Part shown: positions 31,711 through 42,342 of the stretch, piece by piece
How the letters are laid out: each line of letters opens with the position of its first letter
Numbering within the stretch: the first letter of the stretch is position 1
Assembly: GCA_963742925.1 (NCBI GenBank)
Contig: CAVUNV010000008.1
Span: 352,745-416,744, forward strand
Length of the DNA: 64,000 bases
Source of the DNA: an uncultured Actinomycetes bacterium
GTDB lineage: Bacteria > Actinomycetota > Thermoleophilia > Gaiellales > Gaiellaceae
Direction of reading: 5' to 3'
The notes under the pieces: generated by a model
Told to the model about the DNA's origin: nothing
What the model saw: the letters and a program-made list of their open reading frames with translations, nothing else
The model's database searches: none
Program-made: the position numbers and the translations under genes

Positions 31711-33220
31711 TTGGCCACGGAAACGCTCGGGCTCGAGCATCAACTCGTCGAACACGGCGGTCCTGGAACGCAGCATCGAGCGCTTCCGCGACGCGCGCAT
31801 CACCCTTCCCACCTTCGCGCAGCTCGCCGACCCCTCGCTCATCCCGCGCGCCGGTGCAGGACGCGCTCGCCGGCATCGGCCCGGACGACGCCGACCCGCT
31901 CAACCTCTTCCGCGTGCACTGGTACAACGCCGCGAACCGCACCGGCCTCGTGCCTGTGCCGGAGCACGTCGAGCTGCCGAGCGAGATCACCGGCGTGGAC
32001 GCGCGGATCGTCGTCGCGCTCGGCGACCGGTTTCCGCTGATCGCGGCTCACAAGGTGCTGGCCGCGTACGGCTGCCTGGCGCCGGAGCTGATCACGGGCG
32101 GCTTCGATCCGACCCGCGACCGGGCGGTCTGGCCCTCGACCGGCAACTACTGCCGCGGCGGCGTCGCCATCTCCCGGCTCATGGGCTGCCGGGGGGTCGC
32201 CGTCCTGCCGGAGGGGATGAGCCGGGAGCGGTTCGCCTGGCTGGAGCGCTGGGTCGTCGATCCGGGCGACATCGTGCGCACGCCGGGCACCGAGAGCAAC
32301 GTCAAGGAGATCTACGACCGGTGCAAGGAGCTGGCGGCCGATCCCCGGAACCACATCTTCAACCAGTTCTCCGAGTTCGGAAACCACATCGTCCACTACC
32401 TCGTCACCGGGAGCGCGCTCGCCCGCGTCTTCGAGTCGCTGCGCGAGCGGAAGCCGGACATCCACCTGCGCGCCTTCGTCTCGGCGACCGGCTCGGCGGG
32501 GACGATCGCAGCCGGCGACTATCTGAAGGAGCGGTTCGGATCGCTGGTCGTCGCCTGCGAGGCGCTCGAGTGCCCGACCATGCTCGCGAACGGCTTCGGC
32601 GAGCACAACATCCAGGGGATCGGCGACAAGCACATCCCGCTGATCCACAACGTGATGAACACCGACGTGGCGCTGGCCGTGTCGGATCGCGCCACCGATC
32701 GCCTCGGCGTCCTGCTCGGGACCGACGTCGGCCGTCGCTACCTGCACGATCGCCGGGGCGTCGCGGACGACGTCCTCGAGCAGCTGCCGTCGCTCGGCCT
32801 GTCGAGCATCTGCAACGTCCTCGGCGCGATCAAGACGGCGAAGCACTACGGCCTGGGAGCGGAGGACGTCGTCGTCACCGTCGCCACCGACGGCGCCGCG
32901 ATGTACGACAGCGAGCGCGAGCTGGCGATCGCGAAGCACTTCCCGGGCGGCTTCGACGAGGTGGCCGCGGCCGAGGTCTTCGGCGAGCACCTCCTGGGGG
33001 CGACGACCGACAACCTCCGCGAGCTGACCCACGAGGAGCGCGAGCGGATCTTCAACCTCGGCTACTTCACCTGGGTCGAGCAGCAGGGCGTGCCGATCGA
33101 CGAGTTCCAGGCGCGCCGTGACCCGGCCTTCTGGACGACAGATGCGCCAGGTCGTCGCCACCTGGGACGAGCTGATCGACGAGTTCAACGCACGCACCGG
33201 TGTGCCTGGAGAGGCTGTGA
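31711..33220 (+). pseudogene. Fold-type-II PLP enzyme, cysteine-synthase-like (~490 aa), about three +1 frameshifts as assembled
   Basis: Core in ORF 31446..33317: [14 protein letters not shown] (candidate PLP Lys), [37 protein letters not shown]. The N-terminus [33 protein letters not shown] is in another frame (breaks near 31753 and 31852). The C-terminus [21 protein letters not shown] is in the 33118 frame (break near 33137). The true start and stop are uncertain. Confidence 0.65.
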
Positions 33221-34545
33221 GCACGCCGGTCAGCCGGCTCGTTTGCGCCGGGTGCGGTGCGCAGCCGGACCCGGCCGATCCGTACCCGTTCCGATGCCCG
33301 AACGCGGGCCGCGGTGACGACGTCGACCACGTCCTCCGCCGCGAGCTCGACCTCACCGCCGTTCGCTTCCCGATCGACGATCCGGAGCCGAACCCCTTCC
33401 TGCGCTACCGGCAGCTTCTCCATGCCTTTCACCTCGGGCTCTCGGACGACGACTTCTGCGGGCTCGTGCGAGGCCTCGACGCGCAGGTCGCCGCCGTCGA
33501 CGGGCACGGGTTCGCGGCCACGCCGTTCGCGCGGAGCGACGAGCTGAGCGAACGCCTCGGCTTCTCCGCCGACGGAGGCGTGTGGGTGAAGAACGAGACC
33601 GGCAACGTCTCCGGCTCGCACAAGGGTCGCCATCTCTTCGGCGTGCTGATCCATCTCGAGGCGGTCGAGCGGCTCGGCCTGGCCGATCCGTCGCGGCGGC
33701 CCGACCTGGCGATTGCGAGCTGCGGCAACGCGGCGCTCGCCGCGGCCGTGGTCGCAGCCGCCGGGGAGCGCGTGCTGCGGGTGTTCGTCCCGGTCGACGC
33801 CGACCCGCTCGTCATGGCGCGCCTGGAAGAGCTCGGCGCGCAGATCACCGTCTGCCCGCGAACCGGCGAACCGGGGGATCCCACCTATCGCCGGCTCATC
33901 GACGCGCTCGACGAGGGCGCGGTCCCGTTCACGTGCCAGGGGAACCTCAACGGGCTCGCCGTCGAGGGCGGCCTGACGCTCGGCTACGAGCTCGCCGCCG
34001 CCGGCGCCCGGCTCGACCGGCTCGTGGTTCAGGTCGGCGGAGGCGCGCTGGCCAGCGCCTGCATCCAGGCCCTCCGGGAAGCAGGTCGCGCTCGGCGCGC
34101 TCTCCGCCGTTCCGCGTCTCGACACCGTCCAGACGGCCGGTGCGTGGCCGTTGAAGCGGGCCTTCGAGGCCGCGTCGTCACTCGGAGCCGGAGCTGTCCG
34201 CTACGCGGCGCAGCACCGGTCGGAGTTCATGTGGCCGTGGGAGCGCGAGCCTCACAGCATCGCCCACGGCATCCTCGACGACGAGACGTACGACTGGCTG
34301 GCCGTGGTGGAGGGCATGCTCGCGACCGGCGGCACCGCCCTCGTCGCCGACGAGGCCACCCTCACGCGTGCGAACGCGCTCGCGCGCGAGGCAACCGGAA
34401 TCGACGTCGACCCGACCGGATCGGCGGGGCTCGCCGGACTGCTCGCGCTGCGGGCGGAGGGCGAGGTCGGAGACGACGAGCGGGTGGCGGTCCTGTTCAC
34501 CGGGGTCACCCGGACGCTGAAGCCAACAAGGAGGAAGGACGATGA
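33217..34545 (+). CDS. Fold-type-II PLP enzyme, threonine-synthase-like, with an N-terminal Cys-rich segment (frameshift near 34084)
   Basis: GTG 33217 ([18 protein letters not shown]...PFRCPNAG). [17 protein letters not shown] (PLP Lys context), [18 protein letters not shown]. The C-terminal half [23 protein letters not shown]...VAVLFTGV is in the frame of ORF 34151..34597. The end is either 34545 (ATGA with the next gene) or 34597. Confidence 0.65.
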
Positions 34546-40383: not shown

Positions 40384-41394
40384 ATGCAACAGACGGCGAT
40401 CGACCGCAAGACGCTGACCGGCCGGGACTTCATCGAGACGATCGACTGGTCGGTGGATGAGATCGAGGAGGCGCTCGCCGTGGCGGGCGAGCTCAAGCAG
40501 GCCCGCAAGGAGGGCAAGCCGCACCGGCTGCTTCCCGACAAGACGCTGTACATGCTCTTCCTGGACAAGTCGACGCGCACGCGGAACGCATTCGAGACCG
40601 GGATGACCCAGCTCGGCGGCCACGCGATCTTCCTCGACGCGGACAAGACCCAGGTCGCGCACGGGGAGAGCCCGAAGGACATGGGCATCATCCTCTCCCG
40701 CTACGGCGAGGGGCTGGCGATCCGCCACGACCTCGCCCCCTACGAGGGCAGCGCCTGGATGCGGGAGATCGCGCGCTGGGCCGACATCCCGCTGATCAAC
40801 CTCCAGTGCGACATCGACCATCCCACGCAGACGCTCGCCGACCTGATGACGCTGCGCGAGAAGCGCGGCGAGAACCTCAAGGGCCTGAAGGTCGCGATGA
40901 CCTGGGCCTACGCGCCGTCCTATGCGCGGCCGCTGTCGGTGCCGCAGGGCGTTGCGACCCTCTTCCCCCGCTTCGGCATGGACGTCGTGATCGCCCACCC
41001 GCCCGGCTTCGACCTGATGCCCGAGGTGCTGGAGAAGGCAGAGGCGGCGGCCGCCCAGGCGGGCACGTCGATCAGCTTCGCGAGGAGCATGGACGAGGCG
41101 TTCGAGGACGCCGACGTCGTCTATCCGAAGTCCTGGGGCAGGCTCGACGCCTTCGCGGACGGGTCGAAGGCACTGGCGGAGTCGGGCGCCTACAGCAACT
41201 GGATCTGCGACGCCCGCATGCTCGAGCTCGCGAGCCCGGACGTCCTCTACATGCACTGCCTGCCCGCCGACCGCGGCCGCGAGGTGACGGACGAGGTCAT
41301 CGACGGCCCGCACTCGGTCGTCTTCGACGAGGCGGAGAACCGCATGCACACGGCAAAGGCGCTGATGGCGCTGACGATGGGAGGATACGCATGA
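40384..41394 (+). CDS. ygeW: YgeW-type (knotted) carbamoyltransferase
   Basis: FLDKSTRTRNAFETG, KTQVAHGESPKDMG, INLQCDIDHPTQTLADL, VAMTWAYAPSYARPLSVPQG, DVVYPKSWG, LYMHCLPADRG. These strings match my memory of E. coli YgeW rather than OTC, which has a D-x-x-x-S-M-G motif. Intact at 336 aa. Confidence 0.75.
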   Translation: MQQTAIDRKTLTGRDFIETIDWSVDEIEEALAVAGELKQARKEGKPHRLLPDKTLYMLFLDKSTRTRNAFETGMTQLGGHAIFLDADKTQVAHGESPKDMGIILSRYGEGLAIRHDLAPYEGSAWMREIARWADIPLINLQCDIDHPTQTLADLMTLREKRGENLKGLKVAMTWAYAPSYARPLSVPQGVATLFPRFGMDVVIAHPPGFDLMPEVLEKAEAAAAQAGTSISFARSMDEAFEDADVVYPKSWGRLDAFADGSKALAESGAYSNWICDARMLELASPDVLYMHCLPADRGREVTDEVIDGPHSVVFDEAENRMHTAKALMALTMGGYA

Positions 41395-42342
41395 GGCGGA
41401 AGGAGCGCCGTCGTCGCCATCGGCGGCAACTCGCTGATCAAGGACAAGGAGCATCAGACCGTCCGCGACCAGTACATCGCCGCGGGCGAGACCTGCTGGC
41501 ACATCGCCTCGATGATCAGGGACGGCTGGGACGTCGCGATCGGCCACGGGAACGGGCCGCAGGTGGGCTTCATCCTGCGCCGCTCGGAGCTCGCGGCCCA
41601 CGAGCTCCACGAGGTGCCGCTCGACGTCTGCGGAGCCGACAGCCAGGGCGCGATCGGCTATGCGCTGGCGCAGAACCTGGAGAACGACTTCCGCCGGCTC
41701 GGCATCGAACGTCACGCCGTCTCGGTCGTGACCCAGGTCGAGGTGGCCGCCGACGACCCGGCCTTCACCGATCCGTCCAAGCCGATCGGCTCGTTCATGG
41801 ACGAGGAGACGGCGATGCGCCGCCGCGACGCCGACGGTTGGGCCGTTCGCGAGGACGCCGGCCGCGGGTGGCGCAGGGTCGTCGCGTCGCCGGCGCCGAT
41901 CCGCATCGTCGAGGTGGACGCGGTGCGGGCACTGATCGAAGCCGGGTTCGTCGTGATCTCCACCGGCGGCGGGGGAATCCCGGTCGTGACCAACGCGGAC
42001 GGCGACCTCGAGGGCATCGCGGCCGTGATCGACAAGGACCTCGCGTGCTCGCTCCTCGCCACCTGCATCGACGCGGAGCTCTTCCTCGTCACGACGGCCG
42101 TGGAGCGGGTCGCGCTCGACTTCGGAACGCCCGAGCAACGGTGGATCGACCGGATGACGCTCTCGGAGGCCAGGGAGCGCCTGGCAGAGGGCAGGCACTT
42201 CGCCGAGGGCAGCATGGCGCCGAAGATCCGGGCCGTCATCGGCTTCCTCGAGCGCGGAGGCGGCGAGGCGATCGTCACCGACCCCGAGAACGTCGAGCGC
42301 GCGCTGGCCGGCGAGACCGGCACCCACATCGTCGCCGACTGA
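41391..42342 (+). CDS. arcC: Carbamate kinase (one +1 frameshift just after the start, near 41409)
   Basis: ATG 41391 overlaps the ygeW-like TGA. After the shift: VVAIGGNSLIKD...VAIGHGNGPQVG...VISTGGGGIPV...AVIDKDLA...FAEGSMAPKI. Confidence 0.85.

Follow-up and report, generated by a model that had tools for sequence, protein, structure and literature searches.

A candidate F420-dependent variant of the reductive uric acid pathway in an eight-gene cluster of a Gaiellales-type actinobacterium

What function is served, in a high-GC soil actinobacterium, by a compact row of eight co-directional genes, several of which recall a purine-degrading module of Escherichia coli and clostridia? The genes lie at 31711-42342 on the plus strand of a 64,000-nucleotide (64-kb) stretch of a Gaiellaceae contig, which is referred to here as the window. 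An original prediction regarded them as a candidate undescribed pathway that gains ATP from an N-heterocycle or ureide, and held that the chemistry of the related E. coli genes was only partly resolved. That description is outdated, as the chemistry of xdhD, ssnA, ygeW and yqeA was resolved biochemically in 2025 by way of 2,8-dioxopurine (PMC12507026; PMC12990295). The cluster is better viewed as a variant of a characterised pathway than as a new one, and the use of a PF00296 enzyme in place of YgfK is already in print (PMC12507026). We consider that it is probably a soil version of the reductive uric acid pathway that depends on F420, carried by an intact eight-gene operon of a Gaiellales-type actinobacterium.

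The G + C content of the window is ∼70%, so the G + C content at third codon positions (GC3) follows the coding frame very sharply. It marks the plus strand as coding throughout from 31.7 to 42.3 kb, with more frame jumps than gene boundaries. These jumps are attributed below to the assembly, and gene ends and protein lengths are given here as they stand after frame correction. Pfam and NCBIfam profiles place the domains in the order PALP (CysK-like), PALP (ThrC-like), OTCace_N+OTCace (ATCase-like, for aspartate carbamoyltransferase), Fer2/Fer2_2/Ald_Xan_dh_C/MoCoBD_1/MoCoBD_2, Amidohydro_1 (SsnA-like), Bac_luciferase, OTCace_N+OTCace (YgeW-like), and AA_kinase (carbamate kinase). All eight genes are on the plus strand. 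The first two encode pyridoxal phosphate (PLP) enzymes: gene 1 (PALP1; 31711..33220, 501 aa, PF00291) belongs to the CysK/CBS branch, with a TTG start and N- and C-terminal extensions, and gene 2 (PALP2; 33217..34597, 459 aa) to the ThrC/dehydratase/racemase branch, with a GTG start and an N-terminal Cys-rich segment. They are followed by an ATCase paralogue (gene 3; 34542..35502, 319 aa), a fused 2Fe-2S/molybdenum cofactor (Moco) hydroxylase of the XdhD/XdhAC type (gene 4; 35509..38066, 851 aa), an SsnA-like amidohydrolase (gene 5; 38063..39350, 428 aa), and a luciferase-like (LLM), F420-class oxidoreductase resembling Mer (gene 6; 39323..40381, 352 aa, intact). The row ends with a YgeW-type carbamoyltransferase (gene 7; 40384..41394, 336 aa, intact) and a carbamate kinase (gene 8; 41391..42342, 316 aa), the ATG of which overlaps the stop codon of gene 7.

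The successive junctions measure −4, −56, +6, −4, −28, +2, and −4 nt. They consist of GTGA at 33217, an overlap between PALP2 (corrected end 34597) and the ATCase-like gene, a 6-nt gap at 35502/35509, ATGA at 38063, a 28-nt overlap at 39323, a 2-nt gap at 40381/40384, and ATGA at 41391. The original prediction gave the same list with one difference, an ATGA junction at 34542, which arises when PALP2 is read in an uncorrected frame; the identical 56-nt overlap is found in the related loci L003 and L004. The existence of the cluster is upheld, and the original prediction was right about the products of the genes, their operon-like packing and the host being an actinobacterium, the closest loci being those of Gaiellaceae, Gaiellales and Thermoleophilia metagenome-assembled genomes (MAGs). 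Synteny with relatives spans ∼31776 to 42342, and the upstream flanks are unrelated between loci, which indicates that the module is self-contained. A sigma-70 promoter/terminator scan, which is uninformative for this taxon, found no terminator-like site on the plus strand within the cluster and zero promoters. Judged by its sequence, the group is an operon whose reading frames are broken by the long-read assembly alone and are whole in the organism.

A scan with the corrected SsnA-like protein, in one genome per GTDB species, identified at least 552 stretches encoding a relative; the locus counts given from here on refer to the best 80 of these stretches and are based on tblastn layouts. Most of the 80 loci come from Gaiellaceae, Gaiellales and Thermoleophilia MAGs, with other carriers among Chloroflexia, Dormibacterales, Limnocylindria, Armatimonadota, and a few MAGs with other phylum labels. 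Conservation of the eight-gene order, which the original prediction had left to such a census, is borne out: the same order occurs in 38 loci and a permuted one in 15 more, and the cluster is not a chance grouping. The exact order of the window is seen in 14 loci, and in 24 it is joined by a three-subunit FAD/Fe-S/Moco xanthine dehydrogenase (XDH) between the LLM and transferase genes; six loci hold truncated versions of those two orders. Another six have the order PALP1, PALP2, ATCase paralogue, carbamoyltransferase, (carbamate kinase), XdhD, SsnA, LLM, nine have a divergent arrangement, and the remainder are on short contigs.

Gene by gene, the Moco enzyme and the transferase are each present in 71 of the 80 loci, the LLM in 70, PALP1 in 66, PALP2 and the ATCase paralogue each in 64, and carbamate kinase in 42, where it often lies beyond the flank. 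Adenine deaminase is found in 23 loci, HyuA-like proteins in five, YgfK in three, YgeY-like proteins in three, and YgeX and YgfM in none; no further gene family is common to the neighbourhoods. In ∼22 Gaiellales loci an 8-oxoguanine deaminase (605 bits, above the cut-off of 532) stands beside adenine deaminase, and these two deaminases, together with the three-subunit XDH that about 40 loci have between the LLM and transferase genes, would funnel purines to urate.

Some variation among the loci was also seen. The three-subunit FAD/2Fe-2S/Moco dehydrogenase is polymorphic at window ∼40321-40343 (compared with L001 6401-9959), being absent from the window and 13 other loci and present in 24, and a 187-nt spacer before the kinase gene in L001 and L002 is absent from the window. 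Two MAGs labelled otherwise, one as Verrucomicrobiota (L023, JBLMYA010000092.1) and one as Pseudomonadota (L039, JBLNEO010000244.1), contain Gaiellales-type clusters whose proteins are 70-94% identical to those of the window, which looks like mis-binning, mislabelling, or recent transfer.

The xdhD/ssnA/ygeW cluster of E. coli and clostridia encodes the reductive uric acid pathway, which was resolved in 2025 (Li et al., PMC12507026; commentary by Percudani, PMC12990295). XdhD-YgfM or XdhAC turns urate into 2,8-dioxopurine (‘yanthine’), which is then reductively dearomatised by YgfK or UacX. Ring opening by SsnA gives ureidomethylhydantoin, from which HyuA forms 2,3-diureidopropionate. YgeW phosphorolyses one ureido group and carbamate kinase uses the carbamoyl phosphate to make ATP, YgeY hydrolyses the other ureido group, and YgeX converts 2,3-diaminopropionate to pyruvate (PMC12507026). 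Li et al. and Liu et al. (2025, as summarised in PMC12990295) disagree over which ureido group YgeW attacks first (PMC12507026; PMC12990295).

A corresponding route of seven steps can be proposed for the Gaiellales cluster; homology supports steps 1, 3, 4, and 7, and in every step we infer the substrate. The fused 2Fe-2S/Moco enzyme would interconvert urate and 2,8-dioxopurine (step 1), and the Mer-like LLM enzyme would dearomatise 2,8-dioxopurine with F420H2 (step 2), the job done by YgfK in E. coli and by UacX in Clostridioides difficile. The SsnA-like amidohydrolase would then open the pyrimidine ring (step 3). The remaining hydantoin/dihydrouracil ring would presumably be opened by a dihydropyrimidinase encoded elsewhere in the genome, or by a second activity of SsnA. 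The YgeW-type transferase would phosphorolyse one ureido group of 2,3-diureidopropionate (step 4), and the ATCase paralogue the other, most plausibly the N-alpha group, in place of the hydrolase YgeY (step 5). The PLP pair would take over from YgeX in breaking down 2,3-diaminopropionate to pyruvate and ammonia (step 6), and carbamate kinase would turn both carbamoyl phosphates into ATP (step 7), giving two ATP per urate compared with one in E. coli.

The genes of the proposed route can be compared with those of the known systems. The E. coli genes (ygeW-ygeX-ygeY-hyuA-yqeA and ygfK-ssnA-ygfM-xdhD) have in common with the cluster a fused Fe-S/Moco enzyme, SsnA, a YgeW-type transferase and carbamate kinase, and the same logic: the purine is reduced and dearomatised, its rings are opened, the ureido groups are stripped and the C3 diamino acid is deaminated. 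In contrast to E. coli, an F420-class LLM enzyme stands in for YgfK, an ATCase paralogue for YgeY and two unrelated PLP enzymes for YgeX, and the window holds no genes for a YgfM FAD subunit, HyuA, YqeB/YqeC/MocA or a urate permease. In addition, the several transcription units of E. coli are replaced by one compact operon in a high-GC soil actinobacterium. The clusters of C. difficile and C. sporogenes (XdhAC, UacX, UacY) share with the window a fused TIGR03311-type Moco enzyme of ∼850 aa that has no dedicated FAD subunit, and possess a PydA-like UacX reductase and a hydrolytic D-aminoacylase, UacY (PMC12507026, PMC12990295). Because UacY is hydrolytic, no carbamoyl phosphate arises at that clostridial step, whereas the present cluster appears to phosphorolyse twice.

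Four of the proteins tie the cluster to the CHARACTERISED pathway (PMC12507026) by homology: the Moco enzyme, the SsnA-like protein, carbamate kinase, and the YgeW-type product of gene 7. Identities to the E. coli proteins are 28% (Moco enzyme and XdhD), 39% (SsnA), 40% (transferase and YgeW), and 46% (kinase and YqeA). NCBIfam scores for the Moco, SsnA-like, LLM, and kinase proteins and the ATCase paralogue were taken on the frame-corrected sequences. The Moco enzyme scores 965.5 with TIGR03311, well above the cut-off of 830.45, and the kinase passes NF009007 (383.4 against 266) and falls slightly short of the arcC equivalog (353.1 against 358.25). For the SsnA-like protein the best families are the SsnA profiles NF005540 (404.8, cut-off 444) and TIGR03314 (391, cut-off 455.5), the next family scoring 120 bits.

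Gene 6 matches PF00296 with 230 bits. Its 17 best NCBIfam matches are all F420-dependent LLM classes, none of them reaching its cut-off (the top one, Mer, scores 173 against 276), and the classes dependent on flavin mononucleotide score far lower. The best PDB match is a Mer structure (8qq8, E 7e-40), in a best set composed of the F420-dependent enzymes Mer, FGD, and fHMAD. Mer, the closest relative by both structure and family, is itself an F420H2-dependent reducer of a heterocyclic substrate; gene 6 differs from it in scoring below the Mer cut-off, in its bacterial, purine-catabolic context, and in the lack of C1-pathway genes nearby. The gene is positioned after that for SsnA, and the window has no YgfK or UacX homologue. 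Taken together, gene 6 is proposed to encode a 2,8-dioxopurine (yanthine) reductase.

Relatives of the cluster provide a second kind of evidence, in the form of non-orthologous DISPLACEMENT: YgfK takes turns with the LLM enzyme in L066 and L083, and a YgeY-like protein with the ATCase paralogue in L077 and L081. The LLM and YgfK are mutually exclusive among otherwise equivalent clusters, the two Chloroflexia loci L066 and L083 having a bona fide YgfK (TIGR03315, 880 above a cut-off of 835) and no LLM. This supports the suggestion of the original prediction that the LLM enzyme stands in for YgfK. The further suggestion that it also takes over the hydantoinase step finds no such support, as the operons of some relatives hold a true D-hydantoinase; those of L056 and L078 begin with one (567 above a cut-off of 393). 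In seven loci from Chloroflexia, Chloroflexota, and Limnocylindria (L057, L058, L075, L079, L087, L077, and L081), Moco and SsnA genes were seen and neither LLM nor YgfK was detected in the fetched flanks. The dearomatising reductase of these clusters may be of a third type.

A PF00296 ‘putative F420-dependent’ enzyme in place of YgfK/UacX has been reported for Chloroflexota clusters, from a sequence-similarity network and by bioinformatics only (PMC12507026). The likeness lies in a PF00296 enzyme replacing YgfK/UacX as the 2,8-dioxopurine reductase. That bioinformatic report is confined to Chloroflexota, and neither the ATCase paralogue nor the PLP pair is mentioned; its gene neighbourhoods are coloured at the Pfam level, at which these proteins would count as ‘YgeW’ and ‘YgeX’. 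Here, in contrast, the main carriers are Gaiellales, and several Chloroflexia loci have YgfK or lack an LLM gene. No other link between ssnA and F420 was found in the literature searched beyond PMC12507026, and the words purine, urate, and xanthine are absent from a review of F420 biology published in 2021 (PMC8498797).

Several observations weigh against this assignment to urate. One is a hole in the proposed pathway left by the hydantoinase/dihydropyrimidinase, which is missing from the window: neither E. coli HyuA nor the L056 hydantoinase gives a tblastn match within the 64 kb, and most Gaiellales loci have no such gene within +/-10 kb (it is present in five of the 80). YgeX, YgeY, HyuA, YgfK, YgfM, YqeB/C, MocA, and purine permeases likewise have zero homologues in the window, in agreement with the absences listed originally (ygeX, ygeY, hyuA, ygfK, ygfM, and yqeB/C). 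The substrates are assigned by homology at 28-46% identity to the E. coli proteins, and the SsnA-like and YgeW-type proteins both lie below the NCBIfam equivalog cut-offs. This locus supplies no FAD subunit for the Moco enzyme, the step of which may run in either direction in vivo. The residue of this enzyme that aligns with E606 of E. coli XdhD is a proline, is variable in relatives, and lies in a poorly aligned region. Further difficulties are that gene 3 passes the ATCase profile TIGR00670, by a small margin (245.6 against 236.95), that neither PLP enzyme can be recognised as a diverged YgeX (no BLAST match, hhalign probability ∼1%, with Foldseek supporting the fold class only), that the Asp aligned to YgeX D120 is missing in both, and that there are two PLP enzymes for the step of a single YgeX. 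Gaiellales are, moreover, described as aerobes.

These points give some weight to the view that the same enzyme logic acts on a different substrate, an N-heterocycle such as another oxopurine or a pteridine or pyrimidine derivative, with the Moco enzyme perhaps a hydroxylase instead of a dehydroxylase. Low identity to XdhD, SsnA, and YgeW, the equivalog scores of the last two, and the lack of conservation at the E606-equivalent position all fit this view; with HyuA, YgeY, and YgeX all missing, the downstream intermediates could differ, and Mer, the closest solved relative of the LLM enzyme, reduces a pterin derivative. E606 has been proposed to orient urate in E. coli XdhD (PMC12507026). As a marker for urate orientation, however, this residue is uninformative here, since the region aligns poorly. 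On the other side, what marks out the urate pathway is the co-occurrence of a Moco enzyme, SsnA, a YgeW-type transferase, and carbamate kinase (PMC12507026), purines are led to urate by three neighbours seen in relatives (adenine deaminase, 8-oxoguanine deaminase, and the three-subunit XDH), and true YgfK, D-hydantoinase, and YgeY-like genes reappear inside related clusters. A different substrate is thus unlikely, and it is the alternative that we would take most seriously.

The terminal step of the urate route would fall to the PLP pair. The Schiff-base lysine is kept as K114 in 61 of 61 PALP1 sequences and as K136 in 64 of 65 PALP2 sequences, and the phosphate loop is kept along with it in both enzymes (61-65 orthologues). 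AlphaFold2 models have predicted local distance difference test scores of 85 (PALP1) and 80 (PALP2). In Foldseek searches, the PALP1 model is nearest to cysteine synthase, CBS, and beta-cyanoalanine synthase, enzymes of beta-replacement or beta-elimination on beta-substituted alanines, and the top matches of the PALP2 model are threonine synthase, threonine deaminase, and serine racemase, with diaminopropionate ammonia-lyase at rank 42. The two genes always occur together, in fixed order and with mostly overlapping stop and start codons, and they persist beside either the ATCase paralogue or the YgeY-like gene. Terminal deamination of diaminopropionate by the pair would be the most economical reading of these data, and one of the two enzymes may act as a racemase or handle a beta-substituent.

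CysK-like PLP enzymes are also known to make 2,3-diaminopropionate in pathways of the SbnA/VioB type. The cluster could in principle be biosynthetic, with the PLP pair and the two transferases building a ureido- or diaminopropionate metabolite and carbamate kinase supplying the carbamoyl phosphate; a faint match of PALP1 to the SbnA family (E 8e-4) and the reversibility of transcarbamylase reactions are compatible with this. Such a function is highly improbable, given that the module contains no nonribosomal peptide synthetase, polyketide synthase, ligase, or exporter gene, that it is hard to see what a Moco hydroxylase or an SsnA amidohydrolase would contribute to biosynthesis, and that the module is single-copy, syntenic, and highly conserved in several hundred species, with purine-salvage and catabolic neighbours. 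Furthermore, carbamate kinase and a YgeW-type transferase are a catabolic pairing (PMC12507026).

Two carbamoyltransferases in one operon are central to the proposed energy yield. A catabolic carbamoyltransferase coupled to carbamate kinase, as in the arginine deiminase and agmatine/putrescine routes, phosphorolyses a ureido group to carbamoyl phosphate, from which ATP is formed. The present cluster resembles those modules in this coupling, and differs from them in that its one kinase seems to be supplied by two different transferases working on the same substrate molecule and that neither transferase is an orthologue of ornithine carbamoyltransferase (OTC) or putrescine carbamoyltransferase.

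Gene 7 has YgeW as its best NCBIfam match (258.8 bits, cut-off 453), is 60 aa shorter than YgeW, and fails the OTC profiles NF001986 (256.6 against 306) and TIGR00658 (252.6 against 280.85). Its best PDB match is E. coli YgeW (3q98, E 1e-67), with which it has the motifs NLQCDIDHPTQ, MTWAYxPSYxxPLSVPQG, VYPKSW, and MHCLPAD in common. It is 30% identical to ArgI, lacks the SMG loop of OTC, and reads YPKSWG there as YgeW does. The earlier assignment of this second transferase to the YgeW type, as opposed to anabolic OTC, is supported by the shared motifs and failed OTC cut-offs.

Gene 3 has a different origin. It is 37-40% identical to E. coli PyrB, its best PDB match is 1ml4, and it fails NF002032 (216.4, cut-off 263). 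In a family alignment of 63 members with E. coli PyrB, using E. coli numbering, the carbamoyl-phosphate site (S52, T53, R54, T55, R105, H134, and Q137) and also R167, L267, and R269 are invariant. Equally invariant in the 63 sequences are the replacements K83D, K84Y, S80R, and R229P and an 8-aa insertion after position 230. In ATCase, K84 and R229 hold the beta-carboxylate of aspartate. Both of these aspartate-binding residues are thus replaced in the gene 3 family, and the Q231 region is broken by the insertion. Replacement of cations by Asp, Tyr, and Pro would fit a substrate whose side chain is cationic or neutral, for example 3-amino-2-ureidopropanoate (N-alpha-carbamoyl-diaminopropionate), and we propose that gene 3 encodes a phosphorolytic carbamoyltransferase acting on N-alpha-carbamoyl-2,3-diaminopropionate. 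Compared with PyrB, the fold and the full carbamoyl-phosphate site are retained, and the remodelled pocket, the absence of pyrI, and the setting in a catabolic operon with carbamate kinase are different. The suspicion that gene 3 is not a bona fide PyrB is therefore upheld by the invariant R229P, K84Y, and K83D replacements. The idea that a second carbamoyl group is harvested gains support from L077 and L081, where a YgeY-like hydrolase is present and the ATCase paralogue absent. No mention of an ATCase paralogue in the context of reductive urate breakdown was found in the literature searched.

That the two genes are simply PyrB and anabolic ArgF in a coincidental housekeeping neighbourhood, as the marginal TIGR00670 pass and PyrB-like identity of gene 3 and the public annotation of gene 7 homologues as ‘ornithine carbamoyltransferase’ might suggest, has a near-negligible probability in view of the altered aspartate pocket and insertion and the NF002032 failure of gene 3, the KSWG in place of SMG, YgeW-specific motifs and OTC failures of gene 7, the fact that both genes stay with those for the Moco enzyme and SsnA across several rearrangements and phyla, and the lack of adjacent pyrI, pyrC, or arg genes.

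The deposited sequence interrupts six of the eight genes, which raised the worry that the operon is dead. DNA alignment and protein-guided correction located ten frameshifts, each a +1 shift equivalent to a single inserted base relative to orthologous loci. Alignment to the orthologues places the insertions, all on the plus strand, at ∼31754, ∼31848, ∼33137, and ∼33204 in gene 1, ∼34089 in gene 2, ∼35114 in gene 3, ∼37580 and ∼37666 in gene 4, ∼38779 in gene 5, and ∼41402 in gene 8. The last of these was mapped against L001 and L002, and disrupts the N-terminus, leaving the ATG in another frame than the body of the gene. Without correction, the ATCase-like gene is split into two frames, the Moco gene into three, and the SsnA-like gene into two; deletion of the ten bases restores eight full-length open reading frames (ORFs), each with a stop codon. 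PALP1 homologues are 501 aa long and coincide with the corrected ORF at both start and end. The orthologous loci L001-L006, obtained through proteins 86-91% identical to the products of genes 1 and 7, carry the genes of the cluster uninterrupted.

The defect extends across the window. An arylsulfatase gene (CSPTRSCLLTGR motif) at 3233-5578 runs through frames 1, 2, 0, 1, 2, 0, that is, five frameshifts and six segments, and the ABC ATPase and Bmp-family binding protein genes downstream of the cluster (42371-45127) are likewise frameshifted. A GC3 hidden Markov model counts 26 same-strand frame changes of the ‘+1’ type and 13 of the ‘−1’ type. Within the cluster, every fragment has a GC3 of at least 0.9, the codon bias is kept, and there are no in-frame stops or deletions. 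A public gene call on the same deposited contig (P0135) ends in an out-of-frame tail, so the errors sit in the deposited assembly. The closest genomes are ‘MFD...bin’ long-read MAGs with Flye-style contig names and similar artefacts, such as fusion of the Moco and SsnA genes in L002 and a split P-type ATPase gene in L001, whereas orthologues in short-read MAGs are intact. The pattern of +1 shifts across the window is that of a systematic insertion error of long-read MAG assembly. Since the shifts run in one direction, are window-wide, and are missing from orthologues, the operon is expected to be intact in the organism.

Genuine decay to a pseudogene cluster, to which the density of ten frameshifts in 10.6 kb and six of eight genes in the deposited contig might point, is effectively refuted by the ten of ten single-base insertions in one direction, the kept codon bias without in-frame stops or deletions, the same defect in unrelated genes of the window, comparable errors in sister long-read MAGs, one of them at the identical site in L002, and intact orthologues in short-read MAGs. 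At that site (window ∼37663, L002 ∼3744), two independent assemblies contain the same single-base insertion relative to L001, which suggests a basecalling or polishing error specific to the sequence context. Another example of ‘+1’ frameshifts is found at window 5729-7097.

With the operon regarded as intact, its significance lies in the ecological reach of a pathway that was solved in gut bacteria only in 2025 and is at present ascribed to anaerobes of the gut and elsewhere: several hundred soil species, most of them Gaiellales, would carry a conserved and re-tooled form of it, which would extend that reach. Three features seem not to have been described before, namely the second carbamoyltransferase derived from ATCase, the PLP pair, and the spread across Gaiellales. 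Public annotation as aspartate or ornithine carbamoyltransferase, cysteine synthase, and threonine synthase hides the pathway. If the proposal is correct, F420 would have a new physiological role in purine catabolism. The ATCase paralogue would be a clean case of neofunctionalisation, in which the carbamoyl-phosphate site is kept and the amino-acid pocket remodelled, and the use of a phosphorylase for a hydrolase would double the substrate-level ATP yield. It also offers a test of the published disagreement on the first ureido target of YgeW; the assignment proposed here would support the cleavage order in which YgeW acts on the 3-ureido group first.

A more far-reaching version of this proposal is possible, and we put it forward tentatively, as something that could well prove wrong. 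It envisages an ancient F420-driven reductive urate pathway across several hundred species of soil Actinomycetota, Chloroflexota, and allied groups, in which reversal of charge in the aspartate pocket turned an ATCase paralogue into an N-carbamoyl-diaminopropionate phosphorylase, two ATP are gained per urate, a PLP pair serves for YgeX, and SsnA possibly carries out both ring openings.

Upstream of gene 1, a conserved promoter-proximal DNA motif (GCGGAAAATCACTGACCGAGGTTACGGCCAAGCCCCGAAG) is found at 31619..31658 (+), a 40-bp imperfect dyad of the form CGGGG..TC-N16-GA..CCCCG. It is followed, ∼20 nt further on, by the −10-like hexamer TACGCT (TANNNT; 31679..31684, +), and by a ribosome-binding site, GGAGG, near 31700 (+). 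At least 25 Gaiellales loci have the motif and the TANNNT hexamer before gene 1; in a 25-sequence alignment position 2 (A) and position 6 (T) of the hexamer are invariant. The motif occurs once per locus, solely before gene 1, with no further copy in the window or the fetched loci. A riboswitch or leader RNA was considered and rejected: Rfam is empty in 31000-31900 and the RNAalifold consensus has 0 pairs. Lacking RNA structure and followed by a TANNNT hexamer, the block is read as a DNA operator plus promoter. The dyad is thus a probable binding site for a regulator, perhaps a purine-responsive one, and the TACGCT hexamer a putative promoter element.

Several genes flank the cluster. An ORF of the NADPH:F420 oxidoreductase family (NpdG/Fno-like; 30466..31179, +) matches PF03807 with 74.7 bits and TIGR01915 (npdG) with 100.6 bits, below the cut-off of 149.8, and its product could regenerate F420H2 from NADPH. 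As a homologue is found near the cluster in only three of the 80 loci (L008, L023, and L010), it is treated as a possible coincidence and not as a member of the module. A ferredoxin gene, considered as an electron partner of the Moco enzyme, was also rejected, as L005 and L028 are the only loci with one upstream and the window has none. On the other side, genes for a two-domain ABC ATPase (42371-43859, −; Pfam ABC_tran) and a Bmp/PnrA-family substrate-binding protein (43954-45127, −; Pfam Bmp), both identified also by tblastn with the L022 and L035 neighbours, are possibly associated. They are convergent with carbamate kinase in the window, border the cluster in about 11-22 Gaiellales loci, and are divergent and upstream of the cluster in L022 and L035; no permease gene adjoining the pair was identified in the window.

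Elsewhere in the window, an ORF at ∼7098-8381 (+), downstream of the arylsulfatase gene, has a CxxxCxxC radical-SAM motif (AVCNLDCAYCF...) and, judged by its translation alone, looks like an anaerobic sulfatase-maturating enzyme. Two tRNA genes, at 49456-49528 (−) and 61473-61559 (+), are the sole Rfam matches at the gathering threshold in the window.

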